DNA of 64,000 bases from an uncultured Eubacteriales bacterium (GCA_964564305.1 CAZMAM010000003.1:7983-71982), one strand, 5' to 3'; shown: positions 15,601 through 58,822, counted from the first letter of the stretch. Translations and numbers: made by a program. Notes: generated by a model not told the origin, from the letters alone.

Positions 15601-18276
15601 ATAACGCCTTATCATTTTACCGTAGACAAAACGGCGCCGACCGGTACCGTGACTGTCGAGAGCTTGGGTACGTGGGACAAGCTAATTGAGGTGCTGACAT
15701 TCGGATTATGGAGCAAAGACACGGTCTCGGTTACGGGAACCAGCGATGATTTGACCAGTCCGATTGATTCGGTAGATTATTACAAAACGCCGGATATTGT
15801 GGCCAAAACCGTTGAGGAATTGGAAAATATTTTCGAATGGGCTCCTTTCACCTCGTTGTCCGTTTCTCCGAACGAGCGGTTCGCCATTTACTTGCGAATT
15901 ACCGATAATGCGGGCAATGTCACCTATATCAGCACGGACGGCATTATCGTGGATGATCGCATTCCGGTATTTGAACAGGTACAGCCGGAAATCACATTGA
16001 CTCCGCTTTATCCGGAAGACGGGGTATTTTATCCGGAAGACGGGGTATATCAGTCAAACGTCACGGTGTCGGTCAGGGTGATTGATCCGAATGTGGGCGC
16101 GCAGGCTGTTTATTCCGGATTAAGAGAAATTCGATATGAGGTTACCAATTTGGGTAATATTACCCAAAGCGGAGTTCTGTTTAATTTCGTGTTGCAGAAT
16201 CCCACACAGCCGCAGCTGCTGCAGCTGTGGAAAAAACAGGACGCCATTGTGGTAGACAGCGCGCTGAATAACAGCAATCAGGTTTTGGTTCGGGTATTTG
16301 CCACAGATAACGCTGGAAACGAAAATGAGGAAGAAATCAGTCTGCAGATAGACGTCACACCTCCGGAAATTTCGGTTCGGTACGATAATAACGACGGAGA
16401 TACCTCTTTTGCGGAGGGCACCTATTTCAATGCGGATCGTCGTGCCACGATTACGGTGACGGAGCGCAATTTTGATCCGCAGAATGTAACGCTCAGCGTT
16501 ACCAATACCGATGGCCCCGTTCCGGTACTTTCGGAATGGTCAACGGCGTTGGGATCTTCGGAAAACGGAGATGATATTCGCCATATTGCGACATTGCTGT
16601 ACCATGCCGATGGAGATTACCGCTTCGATATTTCGCTCACCGACAGGGCGGGAAACGCCAATACGCCTGTGGATTACGGAACATCGCTTGCGCCCGTATC
16701 TTTTACCGTGGATCAAACATTACCGGTAATACAGGTGACATACGACAATAATGCTGCGGCAAATGGAAATTACTACAATGCTCCGAGAATCGGAACCGTT
16801 ACCGTGACGGAACACAATTTTGAAACGTCCCGTGCGTTGTTTACTTTAAATGCTACCGATAACGGCGTACAGGCTTCGCTTCCCACAGTCAGCGGATGGT
16901 CCTCAAGCGGTGATGTGCATACCGCAACGGTGCGTTATGCTCAAGATTCGCTGTATTCCTTTGATTTTGCGTATACCGATATGGCGGGCAATGCCGCCCC
17001 AGATATACCCGAACAGCAATTTTATGTCGATCAGACACAGCCGGAAGTGACCATTCAAAAAGTATCTGCGAATGGGGTCAACCGGAAATTAGATGAGTCC
17101 GCAAACACCGGAGAAGGAAATATCGGTTTTGTCATCACGGCAACCGATACCAACTTTGATATTTTTACGCCGGAACTGACGGCTGTGGTTCGTTCTTCTG
17201 ACACCTTTGAAGTCAGACAACTGGAAGTCGGATCATTCTCAGAAACGGCAAACGGCAGAAGGTATACTGTCTCCAATCTGGATACGGACGGAATTTATAC
17301 CGTTCGGTGTACGGTAATCGATAAAGCGGGCAATGCGTTTACACAAATTCATTTGGAAGACAGTCAGGGAAATGATTATGTCGAGAACCGTTCGGGAGAG
17401 GATGATTTGGTGACCTTTTCCGTGAACCGCTTCGGTTCCACATTTATGCTCGGTCAATCCACGGCAGATATGGTTGACCAATATTATGTGCAGCGCGTGA
17501 CGGAAGATTTGACTGTCATTGAAATCAACGCAGACCCGATTCAAGAACGTTATATTACTTCGGGCGGTGAGGACATTCACGAGAATGAGGGATATACTGT
17601 CACAGAAGAAGGCGGAAACGGCGATTGGTTTCGGTACACTTACCGCGTGAGCCGTTCACTGTTTGATGAAGAGGGCGAGTATCGCGTGGTGGTATCCTCC
17701 AAGGATAAGGCTGAGAACGATGCCTTCAGCGATGTCAAGGACGCTGCCATTGAATTTGTGGTTGACCGCACGGCGCCGGTGGTGACGGTAACCGGCTTGG
17801 CTCAGGGCGGAAGGTACCAAACGGAAAGACAAACGGTAACCGTTACTCCCATCGATGACGGAGGAGCGCTGCGTTCACTGACCGTTCGTATGGTGGAAGC
17901 AGACAGAGACGGCAACGTTACCGAAATATTATCGGAGCCGATCCGTCTTTCGGGAGAAGAACTGGCGACGGTTCTTGAGGAAAATGACGGTCATATCACC
18001 TTTGAAGTGGCGGAGGGGCTGTACCAAAATGTGCAAATCCTTTGCGACGATCAGGCGGTGGACGAAAACGGCGATTTTAATACTTTTGATACCGTTATCA
18101 CCAATGTTTCCGTATCGTCCAATGCTTTTATGATTTTCTGGGCAAACCGTCCGCTCCGTTACGGTATTATCGGTGGTGTGGCTTTGGTCGCGCTTGCGGT
18201 GTTTCTCCTGATTATCTTATTAAAGCGCAAAAAAGAAAAGGAGCAGGAAGAAGAGGTTTCTTCGGCGCAATCCTAA
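9640..18276 (+). CDS. Giant (2878 aa) cell-surface Ig-like repeat protein with a signal peptide and a C-terminal TM anchor
   Basis: The N-terminal signal-like helix is AAVMLALAVMLSAFPFSVIGAAAAQ. It has 2 carboxypeptidase-regulatory-like beta-sandwich units and about 7 Big_2-like units (e.g. GTTKITATK, GQITVTATKAG, GRVKVTATLKG). Four modules of roughly 350-385 aa are marked by TFGLWS(R/K) and TD(N/A)AGN motifs. The C-terminal TM GIIGGVALVALAVFLLIILL is followed by KRKKEKE. No LPXTG motif is present. Confidence 0.85.
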   Translation: MNKAANGFFRVAAVMLALAVMLSAFPFSVIGAAAAQKVFTFTVTDIAQSPLKGAQVSVFPPQEGEPIVMTTGAQGTASFDLDEGTAYRYEVSLYGYQTVAGEVDWEAGKADVTLMPASKAELKGKVTDSEDTPLPNVAVRLECQEDKRDTQTGPDGSFTFADVYEGETYTLTATLAEYKTHTVTVSDFSRETAVKLTRKESDPLKFSQSSVEITYGETVPQNIATGEKSQENADKYESSVISVATVDNSGKVTVIGVGTTKITATKSENEDYLNSSASYILTVNAGKQSALKWKNPVPQSLSWKETFTFSVSGGSGNGAVTYSVDKAEVAEIDPSSGVLTPKKPGQITVTATKAGEVKDGQQLYEDASITASLTLTKAKQATLTFTQPDEEYSVVFGETFANPATGGSVSGKITYAVEDSDIASVDENGTVTPLQSGRVKVTATLKGDEFYDDVSASYILNIQAAEQKNFHFLILGESFTVTFGDKFFNPALFGENKPIKYDSSDQTVATVDEHGNVTTLKQGKTVITATSPQDGRFDSKTIQYTLIVQRAEQTVVFETENIPQVTYGDDGFQNTASAKTTITYTSSKPETVAVDEATGKLTYLQSGIAIIKATAAETDQYKSAYAEYTISVGLAEQTVTFQKGSEVTVTFNDNENLFVNPAISDKQGAVNNVTYSTDSNLVEHLDVKSGQFTIKGAGTIIVRATIDEDKCYQGASGTYILTVEKDDQTIAFDRENYTLTSGHDFPEGESPKATEQGKFYGTGAITYAYQDDSNGIVKTFSPTDGALDLTYRLGTVTVTATKKGDINYKDASASYQLTVSPWVPEKEENYYHLDGNALPGNEWFRSAVSLFADNGCQVGITNEKGTEWFNSIPDMVTEDGENHSITFYLKNAQGDISDKITLSVKKDGTPPSVSLSKEAPSFAFRFLEIILFGTWHKDTVEYTAEASDELSGNTKIEYYLDTTGIDVKDREALDKISDWQPYDQSISVSKDQAFVVYVKATDAAGNVEYTDSHGVIFDATPPSISLTPSDTGNDYENGFYTGDALFDLAVTDKQPSSGIQSVDYTVTVNGSEKISQNLFTCDPSAEEEQQRVFRFPESGNFLITVPSTGLSETDRVTLTVTVKDLAGNLQTETLENLRIISSPAVVLLSPIAEGYYRNPQTVTVTVCGKPDSFDENKVHLTVTATDAAGKPVADDLSPYYTLGAWSRTQSGDHVAECTFRGNANYRVGVTYEEPKGMIGEAEKELSFTVDAEKPTGKVSIGSLGAWETLLEKLTFGLWSRDILHVTAIAEDAISAPDVRIDMIRLPDKTAKTQAELEALAPETWKTYEPFDVKTDEVFTVYLKLTDAAGNVAYISSDGIILDTEKSRITIRPKEAANENGYYNRDVPIVIEVTEENKDVHSGLKSIIYRVENNGEKTQEGTLFTFERANPAYEELVDTWNSDEAGKEVVVDAQKNNSDAVSVVVTVTDNAGNVQEDEIALKIDVTKPKIRLTYDRQTERVYSGRGYFMTERTATVVITERTSTFDPEQATAGLVFSGTDASGAAVELNREAMIVDWEEPHEGATPDEATHTAHIHFTEDANYTFSVSYTDKAGNANEPVDTGDSVTPYTFTVDKEAPSGVITAGNNSWDVLLYTLTFGLWSRESVTVSASVQDATSPVTVEYFKTDATDLLSFGDLEKIDGWALFSGLTVSAAERDERFTVYLRITDYAGNRIYLQTDGHVVEKTAPKLTLTPQETSIEHNGIGVYNGDVTVLIRAQESDPYSGIQKVEYWVECAGRETQRETLFTYEYIRDTGIGNNGGDLTITEGGQETSQYGFVPTFEDLQSSFEQVITVDAEKNNSCDVSVTVGVTDNAGNYAQESVSLDIDITAPVISVSFNNNAVHKTVGERGYYPSARTATVTVTERTGHFNAQQATDSLKIQAVNAKGEPVRSEAAGRISGWTTTEHSNENTATHTATVEFSADANYDFSLSYTDLDGWENGEIDTEGCITPYHFTVDKTAPTGTVTVESLGTWDKLIEVLTFGLWSKDTVSVTGTSDDLTSPIDSVDYYKTPDIVAKTVEELENIFEWAPFTSLSVSPNERFAIYLRITDNAGNVTYISTDGIIVDDRIPVFEQVQPEITLTPLYPEDGVFYPEDGVYQSNVTVSVRVIDPNVGAQAVYSGLREIRYEVTNLGNITQSGVLFNFVLQNPTQPQLLQLWKKQDAIVVDSALNNSNQVLVRVFATDNAGNENEEEISLQIDVTPPEISVRYDNNDGDTSFAEGTYFNADRRATITVTERNFDPQNVTLSVTNTDGPVPVLSEWSTALGSSENGDDIRHIATLLYHADGDYRFDISLTDRAGNANTPVDYGTSLAPVSFTVDQTLPVIQVTYDNNAAANGNYYNAPRIGTVTVTEHNFETSRALFTLNATDNGVQASLPTVSGWSSSGDVHTATVRYAQDSLYSFDFAYTDMAGNAAPDIPEQQFYVDQTQPEVTIQKVSANGVNRKLDESANTGEGNIGFVITATDTNFDIFTPELTAVVRSSDTFEVRQLEVGSFSETANGRRYTVSNLDTDGIYTVRCTVIDKAGNAFTQIHLEDSQGNDYVENRSGEDDLVTFSVNRFGSTFMLGQSTADMVDQYYVQRVTEDLTVIEINADPIQERYITSGGEDIHENEGYTVTEEGGNGDWFRYTYRVSRSLFDEEGEYRVVVSSKDKAENDAFSDVKDAAIEFVVDRTAPVVTVTGLAQGGRYQTERQTVTVTPIDDGGALRSLTVRMVEADRDGNVTEILSEPIRLSGEELATVLEENDGHITFEVAEGLYQNVQILCDDQAVDENGDFNTFDTVITNVSVSSNAFMIFWANRPLRYGIIGGVALVALAVFLLIILLKRKKEKEQEEEVSSAQS

Positions 18277-49975: not shown

Positions 49976-50004
49976 TTGACAGATGCTCGCCTTTTGGGTA
50001 AAAT
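49976..50004 (+). promoter_or_regulatory. Sigma-70-type promoter of the B12-regulated operon (TTGACA-17-TAAAAT)
   Basis: TTGACA 49976-49981, a 17-nt spacer, and TAAAAT 49999-50004. Confidence 0.65.
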
Positions 50005-50326: not shown

Positions 50327-50373
50327 GCCCTTTTGCGTTCCGCCGTTATCCGGCGTTCGCAGAAGGGCTTTTT
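50327..50373 (+). terminator. Riboswitch expression-platform terminator
   Basis: GCCCTTTTGCG pairs with CGCAGAAGGGC (11 bp including one G-U), with an inner GCCG/CGGC helix. It is followed by TTTTT, immediately upstream of the RBS and start of the first gene. Confidence 0.7.
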
Positions 50374-50396
50374 GCGGAGTAAAGGGGAAGTGCGCT

Positions 50397-53006
50397 GTGA
50401 AAACAGGGGCTCGGCTGTTTTGTGTGCTGCTTTGTATTTCGGTTATTCTGAGTGCGGTACCGTTTGCCGCTCGGGGCGAAGAAAATTTTACGGCGGTGAT
50501 TTCGCTCGAAGGGCTCACATTGGGTCAGGGGTTTTATGTTGAACCCACCGCTTACACATTGGACGAAATCAACGATCTTCTTTCTGCTGTGGGAGACGGG
50601 CCGTACACCGCCGAAACGGTGACGGTTGCCGCACTGACACACGCTATGCTGACGGATTACGGCCTTAAGGCCAAAATCACCGGTAGCTGGCAAAAAAGCG
50701 GGTATCTCAGCGCCGTACAGGGGATAGACACCGATGAAGTGCGCCTTCCCGAAGTTCTTCTTCAAGCGGGAATGCGGGAGGATTTTCCGAAAAATACCGA
50801 TGACTGGCTCGGAGAATTTGATTATACCGCGCAAAGCGGTTGGATGGTGAGTGTCGATCACCGCTTTATTTCGGAAAGCATGAGCGCACAAAGTTTGAAA
50901 AACCGTGCTGTGGTGCGCTGGCAGTTTACCCTTGCCGGGTACGGGGCGGATCTCGGCTGCGAGGACGGATTCGGTGCCGCGGCCTATTTTTCGGCGGCCG
51001 ACCGGTCTGAAGTGTACCGTCTCATAGCCGAAAGCGGCGATACGGCGGCAAAACGGGAAGCCCTCGGTATCCTCGCTCGGTTAGATGCGGGAGGGGATGA
51101 AGTGGCGCGTGCCGCTGCGCTCTTTACGCAGCCCGCGCAGCCGAACCGGCAGGCGTCCGCCGCATTGCACACCGCTATGGCCGCATTGGCCGGAAAAGTT
51201 CCCGCGCCGGTAATGAGTTCCACCGGTGGGGAATGGACGGTGATTGCTCTTTCCCGCGGAGGATATTATCCGGCGGGGCATGCATATTTTGAGGGGTACT
51301 TACGTTCCCTCGGTGCCGCTGTTCGCGAAAATGTTTCGGAAGACGGGCGGCTGCACCCGGTCAAGTCTACCGAAAATTCCCGGGTCATCCTAGCGCTGAC
51401 AGCTATCGGAGAGGATCCCTCCGATTTTAACGGCGTCAATTTGCTGTCTCCGTTACGCGATTCGGAATTTGTGAACGCACAGGGCATTAACGGCCCTATT
51501 TTTGCGCTGATTGCCCTGAATTCAGGGCAGGTTGAAGGATATGATGAAGCTAAGGAGGCCTGTTTGCGCACGATTCTCTCCGCGCAATCGGAGGATGGCG
51601 GATGGTCGCTTTCCGGTTTCGGGGCCGACCCGGATATGACGGCAATGGCGCTTCAGGCGCTGAGTTCGTATGCCGCGCGCAATGAGGTTCAGGTGGCGGC
51701 GGAAAAGGGCTTTGCCTGCCTTTCCGAACTGCAGCGGGAATCGGGCGGGTATTCTTCTTGGGGTACGGTGAACGCCGAAAGTATTGCGCAGGTGATTATT
51801 GCCGCCACAGCGTGGGGAATCGATCCGCAAAATGATTCGCGGCTGGTGAAATCCGGAGGCAGCGCGGTTTCGGCATTACTCACGTTTTTTGATGAGAACG
51901 AGGGAATGTTTTCCCATACCGCCGGTACCGGCGCCAACCTGATGGCGAGTGAGCAGGGGTGTCTGGCACTGGTTGCGTATGACCGTTGGGTAAATGCGCG
52001 CCCGGCTCTGTACGACATGTCCGGCGCGGACACTCCGCCTTCCGATGAATTCCGTCTTACCGCTTTTTTGTCTATGCCGGTGCAAGCGGAGAACCGGGTG
52101 GGGGCAGTTTTTTCCGCCACAGTGTTCCTTTCCGGATTTATGTCGGGCGTAAAACTGATTGACGGCGTCATTCGTCTGCCGGCCGGGGTGAATGTGACCG
52201 GCATGAAGTCCGGCGACCGTTTGGGCGGCGGACAGCTTTCGTATGCGGTGGAGCCGCAGACGCATCAATTGCGGTTTGTTTATTTTGATCCGAGCGGAGA
52301 AAGTGAAATTTCCATTTTCGGGGAGGATAAGCCGATTCCGCTTTTTCAAATTACTTTTTCACCGGAACAAGCATTCTCGGACGGGCAGCGCCTGCGCTTT
52401 GAACTTTCCGGCCTTACTTTAAAGCGATCCGCTCATCAGGGTGAGGACGGCGCTATGGAAACGGCGGATATTTCCGAGGCGTATGCCGAGGTTAGCTTAA
52501 TACAGGGATTCTCTTTTACCGCCAAACGGCTGTACGCGGGGGACGGGGTTGATTTGATTCCGGAGGATTGGCAGGCGGTAGCCGTGGCGGTAACCGGCGC
52601 AAGTGAGGGAGATGCATTGAATTTTTACGGCGGAGCGCTGCTGGCCGATTTTTCCTGTAACGCGCTGCTCAGCGAGCAAAACGGGGTGATTACTTTTGTG
52701 TGCATGGCTCCTGTATCCGCTGAACTTTCCGCCTTCACAGATCCTTCGCATTACACGGTTTCCGGGGGCGGCAACGCATTTGCTTTCGGGGACGCAAACA
52801 GCGACGGGCGCATCAATGCACAGGATGTGCTGATCGCTGTAAACGCTTGGTTACGCGTGGGGGATGCTCCGTCTCCTCAGGAAGTGCTGCGCCTGAATGT
52901 GAACGGCGATGCGCGAATCAACACCTTCGATGCGCTGGGCATTGCCGCCTATATGGTGGACGGCGAGCCGTTCGATATTCTGCAAACGGCAGGTGAGGGA
53001 CGGTGA
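50397..53006 (+). CDS. Secreted multidomain protein: DUF4430-like module + prenyltransferase/terpene-cyclase-like alpha/alpha toroid + cohesin-like module + dockerin; putative cobalamin-binding surface protein
   Basis: A signal peptide is present. The N-module ends in GEFDYTAQSGWMVSVDH. The toroid repeats include GEWTVIALSRGG, EDGGWSLSGFGADPDMTAMALQAL and ESGGYSSWG. The C-terminal dockerin has GDANSDGRINAQDVLIAVNAWL and NVNGDARINTFDALGIAAYMV. Confidence 0.7.
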   Translation: MKTGARLFCVLLCISVILSAVPFAARGEENFTAVISLEGLTLGQGFYVEPTAYTLDEINDLLSAVGDGPYTAETVTVAALTHAMLTDYGLKAKITGSWQKSGYLSAVQGIDTDEVRLPEVLLQAGMREDFPKNTDDWLGEFDYTAQSGWMVSVDHRFISESMSAQSLKNRAVVRWQFTLAGYGADLGCEDGFGAAAYFSAADRSEVYRLIAESGDTAAKREALGILARLDAGGDEVARAAALFTQPAQPNRQASAALHTAMAALAGKVPAPVMSSTGGEWTVIALSRGGYYPAGHAYFEGYLRSLGAAVRENVSEDGRLHPVKSTENSRVILALTAIGEDPSDFNGVNLLSPLRDSEFVNAQGINGPIFALIALNSGQVEGYDEAKEACLRTILSAQSEDGGWSLSGFGADPDMTAMALQALSSYAARNEVQVAAEKGFACLSELQRESGGYSSWGTVNAESIAQVIIAATAWGIDPQNDSRLVKSGGSAVSALLTFFDENEGMFSHTAGTGANLMASEQGCLALVAYDRWVNARPALYDMSGADTPPSDEFRLTAFLSMPVQAENRVGAVFSATVFLSGFMSGVKLIDGVIRLPAGVNVTGMKSGDRLGGGQLSYAVEPQTHQLRFVYFDPSGESEISIFGEDKPIPLFQITFSPEQAFSDGQRLRFELSGLTLKRSAHQGEDGAMETADISEAYAEVSLIQGFSFTAKRLYAGDGVDLIPEDWQAVAVAVTGASEGDALNFYGGALLADFSCNALLSEQNGVITFVCMAPVSAELSAFTDPSHYTVSGGGNAFAFGDANSDGRINAQDVLIAVNAWLRVGDAPSPQEVLRLNVNGDARINTFDALGIAAYMVDGEPFDILQTAGEGR

Positions 53007-53578
53007 GCCGGAAAAAACGTACCGCGCTGATTATCGGCGCGACGCTTCTTTTGCTCTTGATCTTGGCGGCTTGGATTCTTTGGATATTTTTTCGTCCGAA
53101 TACGCCGACTTTGAGCATTGCGGATGTCCGGGGAGAAGGAGAAATAGCGGTTCCGGTGACACTCTCTTCTTTGGGCGATGCGGTATATCCTGCGGCGAGC
53201 GCGGAAATTCTTTTTGATAACACCCGGCTTCGTTTTCTCGGAGTAGATTCGGGGGAAGTGACGGTGGCTTCTGCGCAGGGCAGGCAGATTCCCACATGGC
53301 AGGTCAATCCGGACCGTTGTAATCAAACCGGAAAAATCACGCTGCTGTATTTGGATACCGCTTTATCTTATTCGTTCAATTCCGCTTCGCTCCCCGCTCG
53401 GGATGCGGTGCTCTTTACGCTTCGTTTTGCTTCTGTTCCGGGACAAACGGGAGGCAGTGCGCTCACTTTTTCGGATGCGGTGTTCGCGGCTTCCGATGAA
53501 AAGGAGAGTCTTTCCATGGCCAACGGAAGCTTGAGAACCAAGGATGGTACGGTGACGGTTGGGGAGGCGGCAAAATGA
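53003..53578 (+). CDS. Membrane-anchored cohesin-like protein
   Basis: The GTGA start overlaps the preceding stop. The N-terminal TM is ALIIGATLLLLLILAAWILWIFF. The beta-rich domain LSIADVRGEGEIAVPVTLSSLGDAVYPAASAEILFDNTRLRFLGVDSGEV resembles cohesin N-terminal strands. Confidence 0.5.
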   Translation: MSRKKRTALIIGATLLLLLILAAWILWIFFRPNTPTLSIADVRGEGEIAVPVTLSSLGDAVYPAASAEILFDNTRLRFLGVDSGEVTVASAQGRQIPTWQVNPDRCNQTGKITLLYLDTALSYSFNSASLPARDAVLFTLRFASVPGQTGGSALTFSDAVFAASDEKESLSMANGSLRTKDGTVTVGEAAK

Positions 53579-54645
53579 AACGCAAGCTGCTTTGTCTTTT
53601 GCTGATTTTGTCGCTGCTTACCGCTTGCGCCGCGCCCGTAACATTTGGCGGGCGCAGGCCGCTTGCGGATGATGGCATTGTTTCGGTCGAAACGGTAGCC
53701 GCCTTGCGGGAGCAAAACGGTGTGGCGGTGATGACGGGGAATTCGAACGGAGTTTCTTTTGAGTGGACGCTGTTTGGTGCGGATATTCCGAATGACGCTT
53801 CCTTATCGCTTGGCGTGACGGTGGAGGGAGTTGGCGAAAGCAGCTTGACCGTACGCTTTTCGGATACTTCTCCGCTGCCTTTTTCTCCGCTGTTGTCCTT
53901 GACCCTTCCGGTGCGGTGGAATGTCCAGAGCGCTTCTGTCGGGATAGCCCGGGCAAACGGCATAGCGGCGCTCTCAACGGCATCGGTGACTCAATCCGGT
54001 CAGGGAAGTACCGTGCATCTTTCGGTGACCGATCGAGACGGCGCTCTGAGAGTGGTGCCGCAAATGGGCTTTACTGCGGCACCGAATATTACGCGCCCCA
54101 CGGCGCTGCCGACGGCGTCTGCGGAAACCGTGACGCCCGATGCGTATCAAAATCCGCCTTCCGGCTCCGATATACAGTTGGCGACCGTTCCGTCCCAAGG
54201 GACCGATGCTGTCGCCGATCCGACAGAGACCGGAATGCTCACTTGTATGCTCAGTATTGAGTGCGCGAGCATTTTTTCCCATTTAGCGGATTTGAATGAG
54301 GCCAAGCTCGCCGTTTTACCGGAAAACGGGGTGATTTTGTCCCGCTTGGAGTGTCGCTTTCAGCAGGGAGAGAGCGTCTGGTCCGTGTTGCAGCGGGTCT
54401 GCCGGGAACAGGGTATACCGCTTGAAGCTTCATTTACTCCGGTGTACGGCTCGACTTATGTGGAAGGAATCGGCAATCTCTATGAATTCGATTGCGGAGA
54501 ATTGTCCGGCTGGATGTATGAGGTCAACGGCTGGTTTCCCAATTACGGCTGCAGCCTGTATGAGCTGAAAGACGGAGATGAGATTCAGTTCCGCTATACC
54601 TGCGAACTCGGCAGCGATATCGGCGGAGCGTCGGCTTTAAATTAA
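53575..54645 (+). CDS. Lipoprotein with a C-terminal DUF4430-like (transcobalamin beta-domain-like) module
   Basis: The lipobox is LSLLTAC. The C-terminus is GESVWSVLQRVCREQGIPLE...GELSGWMYEVNGWFPNYGCSLYELKDGDEIQFRYT. An ATGA overlaps the preceding gene. Confidence 0.7.
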   Translation: MKRKLLCLLLILSLLTACAAPVTFGGRRPLADDGIVSVETVAALREQNGVAVMTGNSNGVSFEWTLFGADIPNDASLSLGVTVEGVGESSLTVRFSDTSPLPFSPLLSLTLPVRWNVQSASVGIARANGIAALSTASVTQSGQGSTVHLSVTDRDGALRVVPQMGFTAAPNITRPTALPTASAETVTPDAYQNPPSGSDIQLATVPSQGTDAVADPTETGMLTCMLSIECASIFSHLADLNEAKLAVLPENGVILSRLECRFQQGESVWSVLQRVCREQGIPLEASFTPVYGSTYVEGIGNLYEFDCGELSGWMYEVNGWFPNYGCSLYELKDGDEIQFRYTCELGSDIGGASALN

Positions 54646-54825
54646 GGCGATATGGCATAAAGATTTTTGTGCGTAAAACGGGAGCGGATTTCTCGCCGGA
54701 GAAAACAAAATCCGCTGGGAAACCTTTGGGTATTTGCACAGATTTTTGTAATAGATTACGCAAAAGACGCCCGGCCGTTGGGCAGCCATTGCATGCAGAC
54801 CCGGTCTTTGTGCGGCGTTGCCTTA
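54641..54825 (+). repeat. Intergenic repeat family, copy C (inside the B12 operon)
   Basis: It has TTAAGGC...GCCTTAA termini and an internal perfect 9-bp hairpin AGCGGATTT/AAATCCGCT. It aligns with copy B and with the reverse complement of copy A. Confidence 0.75.
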
Positions 54826-54870
54826 ATTACTTTGCGTTGCCATAAATTGTCATAAAGCGAAAAGAAGGGA

Positions 54871-55755
54871 GTGAGGCCGTTGGGAGCGTTTTACGGGTGG
54901 CATCCGCTGCCCACAGCGGTGTATTTTGCGCTGGTTCTGGGCTTTTCCATGACGTTATCCCATCCGGTAAGCGAAGCGGTCTCTCTGCTTGGCGCCATTT
55001 TGCTTCTTATTTGCCTAAACGGGAGAAAAGGAGCGCGCTTTGCGCTGAGTGTGGCTCTGCCAGCGCTGTTGCTGACGGCAGCGGTCAATCCGCTTTTCAG
55101 TCATCAAGGCGTTACGGTACTCGCCTTTTTTCCAACCGGAAATCCGTTAACGCTGGAGAGCATTTTGTATGGGCTTTCGGCGGGTTGTACGCTGGCGTCG
55201 GTACTGATGTGGTTTGCGTGTCTTACGGCGGTGATGACCACCGATAAAATCGTGTATCTGTTCGGCAGAATTGCCCCTGCTCTTTCGCTGCTGCTGAGTA
55301 TGGCTTTGCGTTTTGTGCCGCGTTTTGTCAATCGATTTCGGGAAGTGCGTTCGGCGCAGGAAGGACTTGGCCGTTCTCTTGTGAAAAAAGGGCCGGTACG
55401 GCGGATAAAATGGCTTGTCGCCTGCTTCTCTGGCGTTGTGACATGGTCGTTGGAAAATGCGGTGGAAACGGCGAACAGTATGAAGGCGCGCGGGTACGGG
55501 CTTCCGGGGAGAACCGCTTTTTCTCCGTTTCGATTTTCCGAATCGGATGGGGTGCGTCTCGCTTTTCTTGGTCTTTGCGCCTTGATTTTGCTGGGCGGTT
55601 CGGTCGCCGGGGGCATGACTTTCCACTGTTACCCGGAGGTATCCGGGGTGTTTACGCCGTACACCGCGCTGCTCTGTTCTGTTTATTTGCTCATGTGCCT
55701 GTGTCCGATGGCGGGAAGGGGAGGAATGCGGATTGCAAACCGTGCGCGTGGATAA
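54871..55755 (+). CDS. ecfT: ECF transporter transmembrane (T) component, EcfT/CbiQ family
   Basis: It is polytopic, with the conserved cytoplasmic-loop region ARGY...R (SMKARGYGLPGR). TTG 54880 is a possible alternative start. Confidence 0.8.
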   Translation: MRPLGAFYGWHPLPTAVYFALVLGFSMTLSHPVSEAVSLLGAILLLICLNGRKGARFALSVALPALLLTAAVNPLFSHQGVTVLAFFPTGNPLTLESILYGLSAGCTLASVLMWFACLTAVMTTDKIVYLFGRIAPALSLLLSMALRFVPRFVNRFREVRSAQEGLGRSLVKKGPVRRIKWLVACFSGVVTWSLENAVETANSMKARGYGLPGRTAFSPFRFSESDGVRLAFLGLCALILLGGSVAGGMTFHCYPEVSGVFTPYTALLCSVYLLMCLCPMAGRGGMRIANRARG

Positions 55756-58357
55756 TTTGACTTTTCGCTATTCGGGCGGGGTTAAGAATGCGCTTGTGAA
55801 TGTCTCCTTCGAATTAAAAGAGGGGGATTTCGCGGTACTCTTCGGTCCGTCCGGCGGGGGAAAATCCACTTTGCTGGCTCATCTCAAGCCTTCGTTAACT
55901 CCTTTTGGCGAGCGTTCAGGTGAGGTGCTGTTTGACGGTCAGCCTCTGTCTTCCCTTTCACCGCGGGAGGCAGCGGCAAAAATCGGATATGTCGGTCAGT
56001 CGCCCGACAATTGGTTGGTAACCGACAAAGTTTGGCACGAACTCGCGTTCGGGCCGGAATCACTGGGAGAAGAAACCGGATTCATTCGCCGAAAGGTATA
56101 TGAAATGGCCGCGTTTTTCGGAATGGACCGTTGGCTGAACCGTCCCGTTTCGGAACTTTCCGGCGGGCAGAAACAAATGGTGAATCTTGCCTCCGCTTTG
56201 GTGATGCAGCCGGAATTGCTGCTGCTTGACGAGCCTTCCGCGGGGCTGGATCCGGTGGCGGCGGGAGAATTTTTCCATTTGCTGCAAACGGTGCATCGCG
56301 AACTTGGCGTGACGGTGCTGCTTTGTGAACACCGCCTGGAAGAGGTACTACCGCTGGCTACGTCCGCTTATTATTTGGAAAAAGGCGAATTAGCGGTGAG
56401 CGGAACTCCCAGAGAGGTGGCAGAGTTCCTTGTGCGCACCCGTTCGCGTTATCTATCGGCGATGCCCGCGGCGGTTCAGCTCTGGGAAGCGGCGGGGGAG
56501 GCCGAAGAATTACGGGATGATCCGATCCCGCTGACGGTGGGGGAAGGACGCGCGTTACTCAAAAACATATCCGATCGTCGGCCGCTTCAGCCCATTCGAA
56601 AGTCGGCGCCGGTACGAGCCGGGGATGTTCTGGTCAGCGTGAACGGCGTGTGGTTTTCTTATCCGCAGGCCGAAGATGTGCTGAAAAATTTCACGTTTTC
56701 GGCACGGGGCGGGGAACTTTTTTGTATTATGGGAGCAAACGGGGCGGGAAAATCCACCGCGCTGAAGCTGATTGCGGGGCTGCTGACTCCGCGTTGCGGA
56801 GACATTATCACCGAAGGGTCTGTCGGTCTGCTTCCTCAGGACGTACGCACTCTGTTTATCCGCCGAACCGTTAAAGAGGAATTGGAGGACGGCCTAGGTG
56901 AGGATTCGCCTTCCGGTGACGAATTGAAGCGCAAGATAGAGCAGACAGCTTTGACGTTTGATTTGGTTTCGCTCTACGACCGTCACCCGTACGATCTTTC
57001 CGGCGGAGAACGGCAGCGCCTGGCGATTGCCAAGCTGATGCTGCGCGATCCGAAGATTTTGCTGCTGGATGAGCCCACAGTATCGCTGGACGAGGCGGGC
57101 CGAGCGGCATTGGCCGGGGTGTTGTGTTTGCTCAAACATCGGGGCATCGCGATAGTGGCGGTCAGCCACGATGTGACCTTTTGCAGCGAAAACGCCGATT
57201 ACTGCGCTTTGCTGTGTGACGGATCGCTCACCGGCGAAGGGGATCCGGCGGAATTTTTTGCCGAAAACACCTTTTATACCACGGAGGTCAGCCGTATGTG
57301 TCGGGGACTTTGCCGAGCCGTCACCGTGGATGACCTGCGCGCCGAACTGTCATTACCTCCCCGTGAGACCTCTTCCCCGCCTGCTACACGGGTACAAGAT
57401 CAAAGCGACGGGGCGCCTCATGCCGCGCCACCGCCGAAATTATCCAGGGCGCGCAAAATCGGAGCCGTGCTATCGGGAGCCGCTGCGCTTGCGCTGATGC
57501 TGGTTGCTGCCGCGAAATCCGATCTTTCCGCTTTGTTGACATCGGGCGGTATCACTGCGGAGGGCGGACTTGAACTCGGCATCATCGCGCTTTTTCTGCT
57601 TTCCCTTGTCTGTCTTGCTGTGTGCTTGGGGCGCGGGAAACAGGCGGAGCGTTTGTCGTGCGCCGATTTACCCAAGCGGACAAAGCGGCTTTCGCTTTTG
57701 CCGCTGCTTTTGGTACCGCCTACGCTGGCGATAGGGTTTGTCATTCCGGGCAGTAAACCGTATTATTTGGTTTCACTCGCAGTGCTTGTGGAATGTATGC
57801 TGCCGTTTTTCATTCGTTTTGAGAAACGGCGTCCGCCTGCCCGGGAACTGACGCTGTTGGCTACGTTATGCGCCATCGGAGTTGCGGGAAGAATTGCCTT
57901 TTTCATGCTGCCGGAGTGTAAGCCGGTACTCGCGCTCACGATAGTTGCGGGCGCCGCGCTCGGAGGCGGAAGCGGTTTTCTGGTGGGTGCGGTGACCATG
58001 CTTGTCTCGAATCTCTTCTTTTCGCAAGGGCCGTGGACTCCGTGGCAGATGGCGGCCATGGGACTTTGCGGACTTCTTGCGGGGTTATTGTTTGAGAGCG
58101 GCATGCTCAAGCGAACGCGAGCCTCTCTTTGTGTATTCGGCGCGATTGCCGCTTTGCTGTACGGCGGGATTATGAACCCGGTTTCCGCACTCATCTGGGG
58201 CGGAGAATCGCTGAATGCATCTATCTTGCTTGCATCCGTTCTCACCGGATTTCCCATGGATTTGGTGCATGCGATCGCCACCGCTTTGTTTCTTTGGTTT
58301 GCCGCCGAACCGTTTATCGAAAAAATCACTCGTTTGCGGGTTAAATACGGAATATGA
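55733..58357 (+). CDS. Fused tandem ECF/ABC ATPase (EcfA-EcfA') with a C-terminal polytopic membrane domain (putative S component)
   Basis: Two Walker A motifs (GPSGGGKST, GANGAGKST), two LSGG signatures and two Walker B motifs (LLLDEPSAGLD, LLLDEPTVSLD) are present. A Pro/Ser linker is followed by about 7 TM helices (e.g. GPWTPWQMAAMGLCGLLAGLLF). Confidence 0.8.
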   Translation: MQTVRVDNLTFRYSGGVKNALVNVSFELKEGDFAVLFGPSGGGKSTLLAHLKPSLTPFGERSGEVLFDGQPLSSLSPREAAAKIGYVGQSPDNWLVTDKVWHELAFGPESLGEETGFIRRKVYEMAAFFGMDRWLNRPVSELSGGQKQMVNLASALVMQPELLLLDEPSAGLDPVAAGEFFHLLQTVHRELGVTVLLCEHRLEEVLPLATSAYYLEKGELAVSGTPREVAEFLVRTRSRYLSAMPAAVQLWEAAGEAEELRDDPIPLTVGEGRALLKNISDRRPLQPIRKSAPVRAGDVLVSVNGVWFSYPQAEDVLKNFTFSARGGELFCIMGANGAGKSTALKLIAGLLTPRCGDIITEGSVGLLPQDVRTLFIRRTVKEELEDGLGEDSPSGDELKRKIEQTALTFDLVSLYDRHPYDLSGGERQRLAIAKLMLRDPKILLLDEPTVSLDEAGRAALAGVLCLLKHRGIAIVAVSHDVTFCSENADYCALLCDGSLTGEGDPAEFFAENTFYTTEVSRMCRGLCRAVTVDDLRAELSLPPRETSSPPATRVQDQSDGAPHAAPPPKLSRARKIGAVLSGAAALALMLVAAAKSDLSALLTSGGITAEGGLELGIIALFLLSLVCLAVCLGRGKQAERLSCADLPKRTKRLSLLPLLLVPPTLAIGFVIPGSKPYYLVSLAVLVECMLPFFIRFEKRRPPARELTLLATLCAIGVAGRIAFFMLPECKPVLALTIVAGAALGGGSGFLVGAVTMLVSNLFFSQGPWTPWQMAAMGLCGLLAGLLFESGMLKRTRASLCVFGAIAALLYGGIMNPVSALIWGGESLNASILLASVLTGFPMDLVHAIATALFLWFAAEPFIEKITRLRVKYGI

Positions 58358-58361
58358 AGAC

Positions 58362-58404
58362 ACCCTCCGGTACGGCTTTACGCCATTGCCGGAGGGCAAT
58401 TTTT
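58362..58404 (+). terminator. Intrinsic terminator at the end of the ECF operon
   Basis: CCCTCCGG...CCGGAGGG is followed by CAATTTTTT. Confidence 0.7.
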
Positions 58405-58468
58405 TGCCGCTAACTCTACACAATTTCTAAACGAAGCCTTGAGAAACCCTGTATTTATGCGGCTCTTT

Positions 58469-58822
58469 TGGTGGAGGCGACGGGAATTGAACCCGTGTCC
58501 GAAAATCGTTTCGACGCAGCTTCTCCGGGCGCAGTTTGTCTTTTGAGATTCCCCTCGGCGGTCGCCGGCAAACAGGCTGCCGCCTACGGTAGCCGCTGAG
58601 TCATGACGAAAAACGCGGCGCCTTTTCGTTCACGTTCACCGCTAAATCGACGCTCCGACTCCGAGCCGCGGTACGCTCAGACGGAACGCGCAGCTAAAGT
58701 TTAAGCCGCGAGAGCAACAGAATTGTTGTCGTTTGTTTTGAAAAGTGTCAGGTTTTTAAGCGAACCTGCCCCGCTGCCCGCTGCTTCGCCGTTGCCATCC
58801 CCGTCGAAACCGTTACGCCCCC
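58469..58822 (-). ncRNA. ssrA: tmRNA (SsrA), 354 nt
   Basis: The reverse complement starts GGGGGCGTAACGGTTTCGACGGGG and ends GGTTCAATTCCCGTCGCCTCCACCA. The acceptor stem has the G3-U pair. The tag frame is ...KTNDNNSVALAA-TAA. Confidence 0.92.

Follow-up and report, generated by a model that had tools for sequence, protein, structure and literature searches.

What does a secreted protein with transcobalamin-like parts do at the bacterial cell, and what would its dockerin hold on to? This question was raised by a gene in DNA from an uncultured Eubacteriales bacterium (GCA_964564305.1, CAZMAM010000003.1:7983-71982). We analysed a window of 64 kb, that is, the whole stretch of 64,000 nucleotides (nt), and all positions are those of the whole window. 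A first-pass annotation had read the gene at 50397-53006 as encoding a protein with transcobalamin-like parts in permuted order, and had suggested that its cohesin-like module and its dockerin could chain copies of the protein into multimeric arrays. We found that this gene is the first of five in what is probably a riboswitch-controlled operon for the capture and import of cobamides. In this operon, the binder would be docked on the cohesin of a neighbouring protein.

Most gut bacteria require cobamides and cannot synthesise them, and the community is therefore shaped by competition for B12. In Bacteroides, the proteins that capture it (BtuG, BtuH, BtuJ) have been well studied. For Gram-positive Firmicutes, a 2026 review among the sources on Bacteroides capture (PMC8941943, PMC13616437) stated that capture outside the cell "remains entirely uncharacterized".

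Cobalamin riboswitch and CbrT-type transporter

The strongest evidence for a role in B12 was the combination of a cobalamin riboswitch and a CbrT-type transporter, which the first-pass annotation had overlooked. The aptamer matched the full-length Rfam model well above its gathering score of 31.5 bits (Table 1), and a promoter-like site was located 15 nt upstream of it. A terminator hairpin was found between the aptamer and the start codon of the gene for the 869-amino-acid (aa) protein. Its folding energy was −32.2 kcal/mol (z = −5.5), and none of 200 shuffled sequences folded equally well. Since an intrinsic terminator follows the aptamer, control is probably exerted by transcription attenuation with B12 bound, and a transcriptional OFF switch is the likely arrangement. 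Of 14 related loci tested, 13 likewise had a Cobalamin or AdoCbl (adenosylcobalamin) riboswitch ahead of the binder orthologue.

The last two genes of the operon encode an energy-coupling factor (ECF) transporter. The S domain at the end of the fused ATPase protein had a sole match in PDB, 6fnp_A (E 1.8e-9); the 182-aa chain of 6FNP was taken to be CbrT on its length. 6FNP is the vitamin B12 transporter ECF-CbrT (PMC5997447). Judged by profile matches, the component set of ECF-CbrT appears to be present, namely a CbrT-family S component, EcfT and two EcfA ATPase domains. The scores of ECF_ATPase_1 and ECF_ATPase_2 were under their equivalog cut-offs because of the fusion.

In Bacillus sp. REN16 (L048), tandem cobalamin aptamers (661-855 and 1044-1224, with 104.8 and 98.2 bits) were located upstream of the binder orthologue. 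In another locus (L008), a group II intron (RF02004 and RF00029, 6994-8082) was found directly upstream of the riboswitch of the operon, and a second cobalamin riboswitch (17487-17716) just 3' of the operon. L001 and L002 encode the same ATPase-ATPase-S fusion (881 and 871 aa, respectively), and these parts are separate proteins in the characterised ECF-CbrT.

Domain structure of the 869-aa protein

The open reading frame (ORF) at 50397..53006 on the plus strand was intact, with a GTG start and the ribosome-binding site AAAGGGGAA located 8 nt upstream. The full-length AlphaFold2 model was built on 42 family members, which were also the sample for the Pfam counts, and its mean predicted local distance difference test (pLDDT) score was 86.6. 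It consisted of a helix (aa 2-20), an alpha/beta module (aa 32-178), about 15 helices (aa 204-532), two beta modules (aa 555-702 and aa 707-790) and a helical dockerin (aa 808-866). This was the same module order as in the first-pass parse, which was correct. All the motifs that had been cited for it were found: GEFDYTAQSGWMVSVDH at aa 139-155, DGGWS at aa 400, DPDMTAMALQAL at aa 411-422, SGGYS at aa 449, NLMASEQGCLALVAYDRW at aa 514-531, VFSATVFLSG... at aa 571-600, QLRFVYFD at aa 624-631, LFQITF at aa 649-654, and the two dockerin loops DANSDGRINAQD at aa 799-810 and NVNGDARINTFD at aa 834-845. One boundary was changed. The GEFDY...VDH motif, at which the N-terminal module had been said to end, was present, but the module extends to about aa 195.

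The full module architecture was conserved across the family. More than 100 of the 120 homologues listed, each about 900 aa long, covered at least 96% of the query. Among the 42 sampled members, Pfam matches were obtained for DUF4430 in 41, for Dockerin in 41, for SQHop_cyclase_C in 39 and for Cohesin in two. The Pfam cut-offs were 22.9 bits for Dockerin_1, 23.8 bits for DUF4430, 24.1 bits for Cohesin and 25 bits for CbiQ.

Structure comparison was performed by searching AlphaFold2 models with Foldseek against PDB. In its predicted structure, the N-terminal module specifically resembled the beta domain of eukaryotic B12 carriers. When it was modelled separately (aa 28-200, pLDDT 79.6), the first 17 matches were transcobalamin, intrinsic factor or haptocorrin with no exception, including the isolated transcobalamin beta domain 5np4 (template modelling (TM) score 0.61) and intrinsic factor 3kq4 (root-mean-square deviation 3.3 Å). 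The 18th match was 3u7z, a DUF4430 structure from Ruminococcus gnavus, and later matches had probabilities below 0.2. The E-values were modest, at about 1e-3, and the specificity for B12 carriers was striking. At the level of sequence, the orthologous region matched DUF4430 at E ≤ 0.01 in 41 of the 42 members (best 39.8 bits, E 6.5e-10), and the module was aligned with the DUF4430 region of the lipoprotein of the operon with an hhalign probability of 93% (E 2.4e-7). The toroid matched transcobalamin (8ixt, 2v3n, 2bb6) at E of about 2e-5. Thus, in the structural comparison that had been proposed as a check of the first-pass annotation, the two N-terminal modules both matched transcobalamin.

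Profile searches of PDB gave a different picture. With the whole family profile, only squalene-hopene cyclase-type repeats and dockerins were retrieved, with no transcobalamin, intrinsic factor or haptocorrin chain, and with the internal cohesin-like module alone no cohesin was found. This meant that sequence alone cannot place these modules, and structure prediction was required.

Dockerin and cohesin-like modules

The dockerin was the most conserved module of the protein. It matched Dockerin_1 (PF00404) with 30.1 bits, contained two EF-hand-like Ca2+ loops and retrieved PDB dockerins in a sequence search. The 90-aa beta module ahead of it matched nothing in Pfam at E ≤ 10. This module accompanied the dockerin in every architecture observed, including variants without the cohesin-like module. 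By analogy, it is possibly X-module-like, a reading whose sole basis is this constant pairing with the dockerin.

The internal module matched the cohesins 5nrk_A, 2vn6_A, 2vo8, 2xdh and 4ums in Foldseek, at TM scores of 0.63-0.68. Pfam Cohesin (PF00963) was above the cut-off at this module in two of the 42 orthologues, P0030 and P0050 (28.3 and 26.1 bits), and the internal module of the 869-aa protein itself had no Pfam Cohesin match. The structural matches and the two orthologues favoured the cohesin-like fold that had been proposed for this region, as opposed to an unrelated Ig-like domain, although the evidence from sequence was thin. We compared it with the cohesin encoded by the next gene. 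Profile-profile alignment with the next-door cohesin family gave an hhalign probability of 46% (E 2e-4, 121 columns). The value was only 2% when the internal-module profile was aligned with the sequence of the window cohesin by itself, compared to the 46% with profiles on both sides. As far as sequence comparison goes, these values fit a distant common fold and not a close paralogue. The module may act as a spacer, or it may offer a secondary site for docking.

Conservation of the operon and of the dockerin-cohesin pair

Related loci were collected from one genome per bacterial or archaeal species. The scan of this collection with the lone 869-aa protein as query gave no relatives, and an alignment-based scan found at least 582 loci, confirmed by tblastn, of which 79 were kept. 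Most of these came from metagenome assemblies of Clostridia of the gut or rumen. Cultured strains were few, namely Alloiococcus sp. CFN-8 (L065), Bacillus sp. REN16 (L048), Clostridium simiarum MSJ-4 (L064) and Clostridium sp. MSJ-8. The five-gene order recurred in L001 and L002 despite unrelated genomic contexts.

Dockerin and cohesin genes were surveyed in 82 related loci, which were scanned with hidden Markov models of the domains derived from the family. The dockerin and the next-door cohesin gene co-occurred almost perfectly. A dockerin-bearing toroid protein was followed immediately by the gene of a transmembrane-anchored cohesin in 58 loci, and in two further loci the cohesin gene was 1.5-2 kb away. 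A dockerin-less toroid protein had no adjacent cohesin gene in 16 loci and an adjacent cohesin, as a fusion ORF, in one. In three loci the contig ended, and the cohesin neighbour was undecidable. Dockerin-less relatives bore Big_2, Big_6 or cadherin-like modules instead.

Four variants (L043, L076, L077 and L079) consisted of the toroid, a low-complexity linker, the 90-aa module and the dockerin, without the internal cohesin-like module. The next-door cohesin was kept in three of them, and L077 reaches the contig end. A hidden, divergent cohesin in the linker was considered and rejected, as the stretch was acidic, Thr-rich and of low complexity, with no profile similarity.

The wider family was large. 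At E ≤ 1e-30 it comprised 2,218 protein clusters, many of which were multi-toroid proteins of giant size. Giant relatives within P0121-P0269, for example P0221 (5079 aa) and P0148 (3573 aa), gave two to five separate query matches, mostly to the toroid. Their sequences suggest that such relatives may be multivalent surface binders. In Terrisporobacter muris (L076, 4553-14963), three successive toroid/DUF4430 proteins were followed by cohesin and lipoprotein genes. They were a 1496-aa protein with SLBB and toroid, a 603-aa DUF4430 protein and a 583-aa protein with toroid and dockerin, so that the parts of the binder were split over several chains. The counterpart in T. mayombei (L080), also of 1496 aa, additionally carried Big domains. 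Some loci came from genomes binned outside the Clostridia. A dockerin binder with next-door cohesin and lipoprotein genes was found in two loci binned as Alistipes (Bacteroidota; L043 and L079), and a dockerin-less binder only in a third (L075). Dockerin binder, cohesin and lipoprotein genes were also found in four loci binned as Actinomycetes, Propionibacteriaceae, Bifidobacteriaceae and Coriobacteriales (Actinomycetota; L037, L038, L040 and L063). The occurrences in Bacteroidota and Actinomycetota reflect either horizontal transfer or mis-binning.

Other genes and features of the operon

The gene after the binder encodes a small membrane-anchored cohesin (Table 1). It matched Pfam Cohesin with 25.0 bits over profile positions 15-135 of 139, and the orthologues in L001 and L002 carried the same match. 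A hydrophobic N-terminal segment was present in 58 of 60 next-door cohesin orthologues. The third gene encodes a lipoprotein, whose position was kept in related loci. The motif GELSGWMYEVNGW, from which the first-pass annotation had drawn its comparison with the N-terminal module, was present in this ORF, together with a DUF4430 match. The lipoprotein is predicted to be a second, membrane-proximal corrinoid binder. Start and stop codons of the first three genes overlapped by 4 nt, as GTGA between the binder and cohesin genes and as ATGA between the cohesin and lipoprotein genes. This arrangement points to translational coupling.

A non-coding spacer of 225 nt (54646-54870) separated the lipoprotein gene from ecfT and held the inverted repeat GCGGATTT...AAATCCGC; the spacer in L002 was 2 nt. 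Just past the operon, a transfer-messenger RNA gene (RF00023, 164 bits) was located on the opposite strand at 58469-58822 (-). No further dockerin or cohesin and no carbohydrate-active genes were found in the window.

Table 1. Features of the operon in the window.
Feature	Position	Strand	Evidence
Promoter-like site, TTGACA-17 nt-TAAAAT	49976..50004	+	11/12 consensus positions; consensus match only
Cobalamin riboswitch aptamer, RF00174	50019..50249	+	78.8 bits vs 31.5, E 9.5e-18; full-length model match
Expression platform, long hairpin then U-run (intrinsic terminator)	50327..50374	+	Folding energy
Predicted signal peptide, aa 1-27, MKTGARLFCVLLCISVILSAVPFAARG	50397..50477	+	Sequence; AlphaFold2 helix aa 2-20, disorder aa 21-29
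Beta-grasp module (SLBB/DUF4430), aa 28-195, transcobalamin beta-domain-like	50478..50981	+	Pfam, Foldseek, hhalign
Alpha/alpha toroid, aa ~200-545, with DGGWS, SGGYS and DPDMTAMALQAL repeats	50994..52031	+	AlphaFold2, Foldseek, weak Pfam
Internal cohesin-like beta module, aa 552-700	52050..52496	+	Foldseek; Pfam in two orthologues; hhalign
90-aa beta module ahead of dockerin, aa 701-790	52497..52766	+	AlphaFold2; co-occurrence with dockerin
Type I dockerin with two Ca2+-binding loops, aa 795-858	52779..52970	+	Pfam Dockerin_1; PDB dockerins by sequence
Membrane-anchored cohesin, 191 aa, N-terminal transmembrane helix and cohesin	53003..53578	+	Pfam Cohesin; hydrophobic 19-mer aa 8-26
Lipoprotein, 356 aa, C-terminal DUF4430/SLBB	53575..54645	+	DUF4430 E 3.6e-16; lipobox-like LLTAC aa 14-18
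EcfT, ECF T component (CbiQ/EcfT family)	54871..55755	+	CbiQ 32.7 bits vs 25; TIGR02454 weak
EcfA-EcfA'-S fusion, 874 aa, C-terminal CbrT-like S	55733..58357	+	Two ABC_tran; ECF_ATPase_1 and ECF_ATPase_2
Terminator-like hairpin and T-run, operon end	58385..58410	+	Consensus match only

Proposed mechanism and alternative explanations

We propose the following mechanism for the operon. When B12 is scarce, the riboswitch terminator would not form and the operon would be transcribed. The secreted binder would hold a corrinoid between its beta-grasp module and its toroid, as in transcobalamin, with the reverse order in the chain. With Ca2+, the 90-aa module and the dockerin would plug into the cohesin that the small neighbouring protein anchors in the membrane, and this pairing would keep the binder on the cell surface and next to the transporter. 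The CbrT-like S component would then receive the corrinoid, probably via the DUF4430 lipoprotein, and EcfT with the fused EcfA-EcfA' module would import it.

Several observations weigh against this mechanism. The binding of corrinoids is, for this family, a prediction. The DUF4430 match of the N-terminal module itself (PF14478, aa 140-178) had 19.8 bits (E 1e-3), below the cut-off. Cobalamin_bind (PF01122) gave no match at E ≤ 0.1 in the 869-aa protein and was absent among the nine families matched by the 42 members at E ≤ 0.01. The sequence of the toroid was nearer to the repeats of squalene-hopene cyclase and prenyltransferases than to transcobalamin. In Foldseek, the toroid was equally matched by drimenyl-diphosphate synthase, squalene-hopene cyclase and prenyltransferase beta subunits, with transcobalamin placed no higher than the cyclases. 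The full-length model had an overall predicted TM score of only 0.45, and the packing of the two N-terminal modules against each other is an assumption. In a mirror-tree comparison of 47 non-identical loci, with partial correlations controlled for the toroid, the dockerin correlated at 0.47 with the next-door cohesin, at 0.38 with the internal module and at 0.57 with the 90-aa module. The values of 0.47 and 0.38 leave the next-door cohesin and the internal module unseparated as dockerin partners, and it is gene adjacency by itself that suggests the next-door cohesin. Furthermore, a related operon of Lactobacillus sakei was experimentally tied to haem uptake (preprint 10.1101/864751).

The second possible partner leads back to self-chaining, in which the internal cohesin-like module would bind the dockerin of another copy and form head-to-tail arrays, either free or rooted on the membrane cohesin. 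The chain does combine a cohesin-fold module with a dockerin, and the internal module occurred solely in proteins that also bear a dockerin. There is a precedent in Amy4 of R. bromii, whose cohesin binds its own dockerin (PMC4611034), and chaining would be compatible with anchoring. Against chaining, the internal module was the least conserved part of the protein, with a mean pairwise distance of 0.62 (dockerin, 0.39; next-door cohesin, 0.52). It was also distant from the next-door cohesin in hhalign, was not found when jackhmmer was started from the latter, and showed no Pfam Cohesin match in the 869-aa protein. The four dockerin-bearing variants do without it, and the three with room on the contig retained the neighbouring cohesin gene. 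The self-chaining suggested by the first-pass annotation therefore found no support, as the next gene encodes a membrane-anchored cohesin that co-occurs with the dockerin even where the internal module is absent. We regard self-chaining as possible, though unlikely, and it is not needed to explain the data.

Two further explanations concern what the binder half does. The substrate might be haem or another tetrapyrrole, as proposed for lsa1836-1840 of L. sakei. In that preprint (10.1101/864751), an ECF operon with separate transcobalamin alpha- and beta-like proteins was tested in haem uptake by a deletion mutant. The pockets of a toroid and a beta-grasp could plausibly accommodate other macrocycles. 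The authors of the preprint noted that their own S component was without cobalamin-binding residues. In the present operon, the only solved relative of the S domain was CbrT, and a cobalamin riboswitch precedes this operon and nearly all of the relatives tested; haem is thus an improbable substrate here. The toroid might also be an active enzyme, a terpene cyclase or prenyltransferase displayed on a surface complex like the cellulosome or amylosome. Weak Pfam matches to SQHop_cyclase_C and Prenyltrans (aa 378-467) and the PDB sequence and Foldseek matches to cyclases would fit such an enzyme, and an inventory of R. bromii dockerins labels one protein "putative terpene cyclase" (PMC4611034). 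The cyclase motif does not fit. The family motif aDPDitamaLqaL was aligned with cyclase PDVDDTAVVVWAL, and the general-acid motif DXDD is not intact, as it reads DPDM in the 869-aa protein and DPD(I/M) in the family. The third Asp of DXDD, which has a role in cyclase catalysis, was lost. In addition, the protein is secreted, and isoprenoid diphosphate substrates would not be expected outside the cell. The toroid is fused to a transcobalamin-type beta domain, the gene is behind a B12 riboswitch in an ECF-CbrT operon, and neither carbohydrate-active genes nor other dockerin or cohesin genes were found in the window. The catalytic reading was rejected as highly improbable on the basis of the DPDM motif, the secretion, the fusion and the riboswitch and ECF-CbrT context.

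Comparison with known systems

Bacterial relatives of the B12 carriers were described by Burroughs, Balaji, Iyer and Aravind in 2007 (PMC1796856). They reported bacterial proteins in which a toroid is found on either side of a transcobalamin-like beta-grasp and whose operons often also include a second paralogue, CbiO and CbiQ. A role in scavenging B12 was predicted, and bacterial relatives were put forward as the source of the animal B12 carriers. The beta-first order noted in the first-pass annotation was seen here (aa 28-195 before aa ~200-545), but it is not new. Both domain orders are in PMC1796856, and the "permuted order" was therefore already known. The present system shares with those proteins the secreted beta-grasp-toroid fusion, with the toroid C-terminal in some bacteria. 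It shares with those operons a second SLBB paralogue, a CbiO-like ATPase, CbiQ and the predicted B12 scavenging. The anchors described there were Ig, FIVAR, fasciclin, beta-propeller and LPXTG, and cohesin, dockerin and riboswitch were unmentioned. In contrast, the anchor of the present binder would be an X-like module with a dockerin, for which the operon has its own gene for a membrane-anchored cohesin, and the ATPases are fused to a CbrT-like S component. The two-domain logic of alpha/alpha toroid and beta-grasp is common to eukaryotic B12 carriers, which hold one corrinoid very tightly between the two domains. In those carriers the toroid comes first and the beta domain has about 100 aa, whereas here the beta module comes first, has about 165 aa with inserts, and is followed after the toroid by three extra C-terminal modules. 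Attachment to the cell is predicted here, as opposed to a soluble carrier.

The transporter shares the CbrT-like S component, EcfT and two ATPase domains with ECF-CbrT of Lactobacillus delbrueckii (6FNP; PMC5997447). That system has no extracellular binding proteins, and its ECF module is common to several S components. Here the module is dedicated, a single chain contains both ATPases and the S component, and the operon has three extracytoplasmic proteins in addition. L. sakei lsa1836-1840 (preprint 10.1101/864751) shares the ECF transporter with fused A-A' ATPases and secreted proteins like transcobalamin domains. In that operon, the alpha-like and beta-like domains are on separate proteins and the claimed substrate is haem; neither cohesin nor dockerin is mentioned in the preprint, and no riboswitch was noted there.

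As in cellulosomes and the amylosome of R. bromii (PMC4611034), the secreted protein bears a two-loop dockerin of the Ca2+ type and the cohesin is part of a cell-anchored protein; Amy4 likewise has a cohesin and a dockerin in one chain. The present system differs in its cargo, which is a predicted vitamin binder and not an enzyme, and in its anchor, which has one cohesin and an N-terminal membrane helix in place of a sortase- or SLH-linked scaffoldin. The cohesin-dockerin pair is also encoded adjacently under a riboswitch. In R. bromii L2-63, one of 26 dockerin proteins carries the "putative terpene cyclase", which was not linked to B12 (PMC4611034); this protein probably belongs to the present binder family. 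In the same study, three of 11 tested dockerins bound none of four cohesins, a set without a small membrane-anchored cohesin. The Bacteroides proteins BtuG, BtuH, BtuJ and BtuK (PMC8941943, PMC13616437) are likewise surface B12 binders that feed a transporter under B12 riboswitch control. They are outer-membrane lipoproteins that work with TonB-dependent BtuB, BtuJ is a DUF4465 protein, and no common fold or family was noted. A literature search retrieved no paper linking cohesin-dockerin to B12 uptake, although most subscription journals were outside its coverage and the absence is not proof. What appears to be new here is the predicted cohesin-dockerin tether with a dedicated, fused ECF-CbrT importer; the idea of the binder is nearly twenty years old.

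Implications for B12 capture

A larger assembly can be imagined on the same parts. In such a "cobalosome", the membrane cohesin would root one binder, and the internal cohesin of this binder would recruit more, which would give a multivalent array beside ECF-CbrT in gut Clostridia. We consider this doubtful. If true, the array would compete for cobamides with BtuG of Bacteroides and with host intrinsic factor, and cohesin-dockerin pairing, so far known for the assembly of polysaccharide-degrading enzymes, would serve B12-regulated capture.

The simpler, singly docked binder can be tested directly, because cultured carriers exist (L039, L064, L065 and L048). The operon is a concrete and widespread candidate for Gram-positive B12 capture, in which riboswitch, binder, tether, relay lipoprotein and importer are all recognisable. 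If the proposed mechanism is true, cohesin-dockerin biology extends from enzyme scaffolding to vitamin uptake, and the operon would open experimental access to the bacterial relatives of animal B12 carriers.

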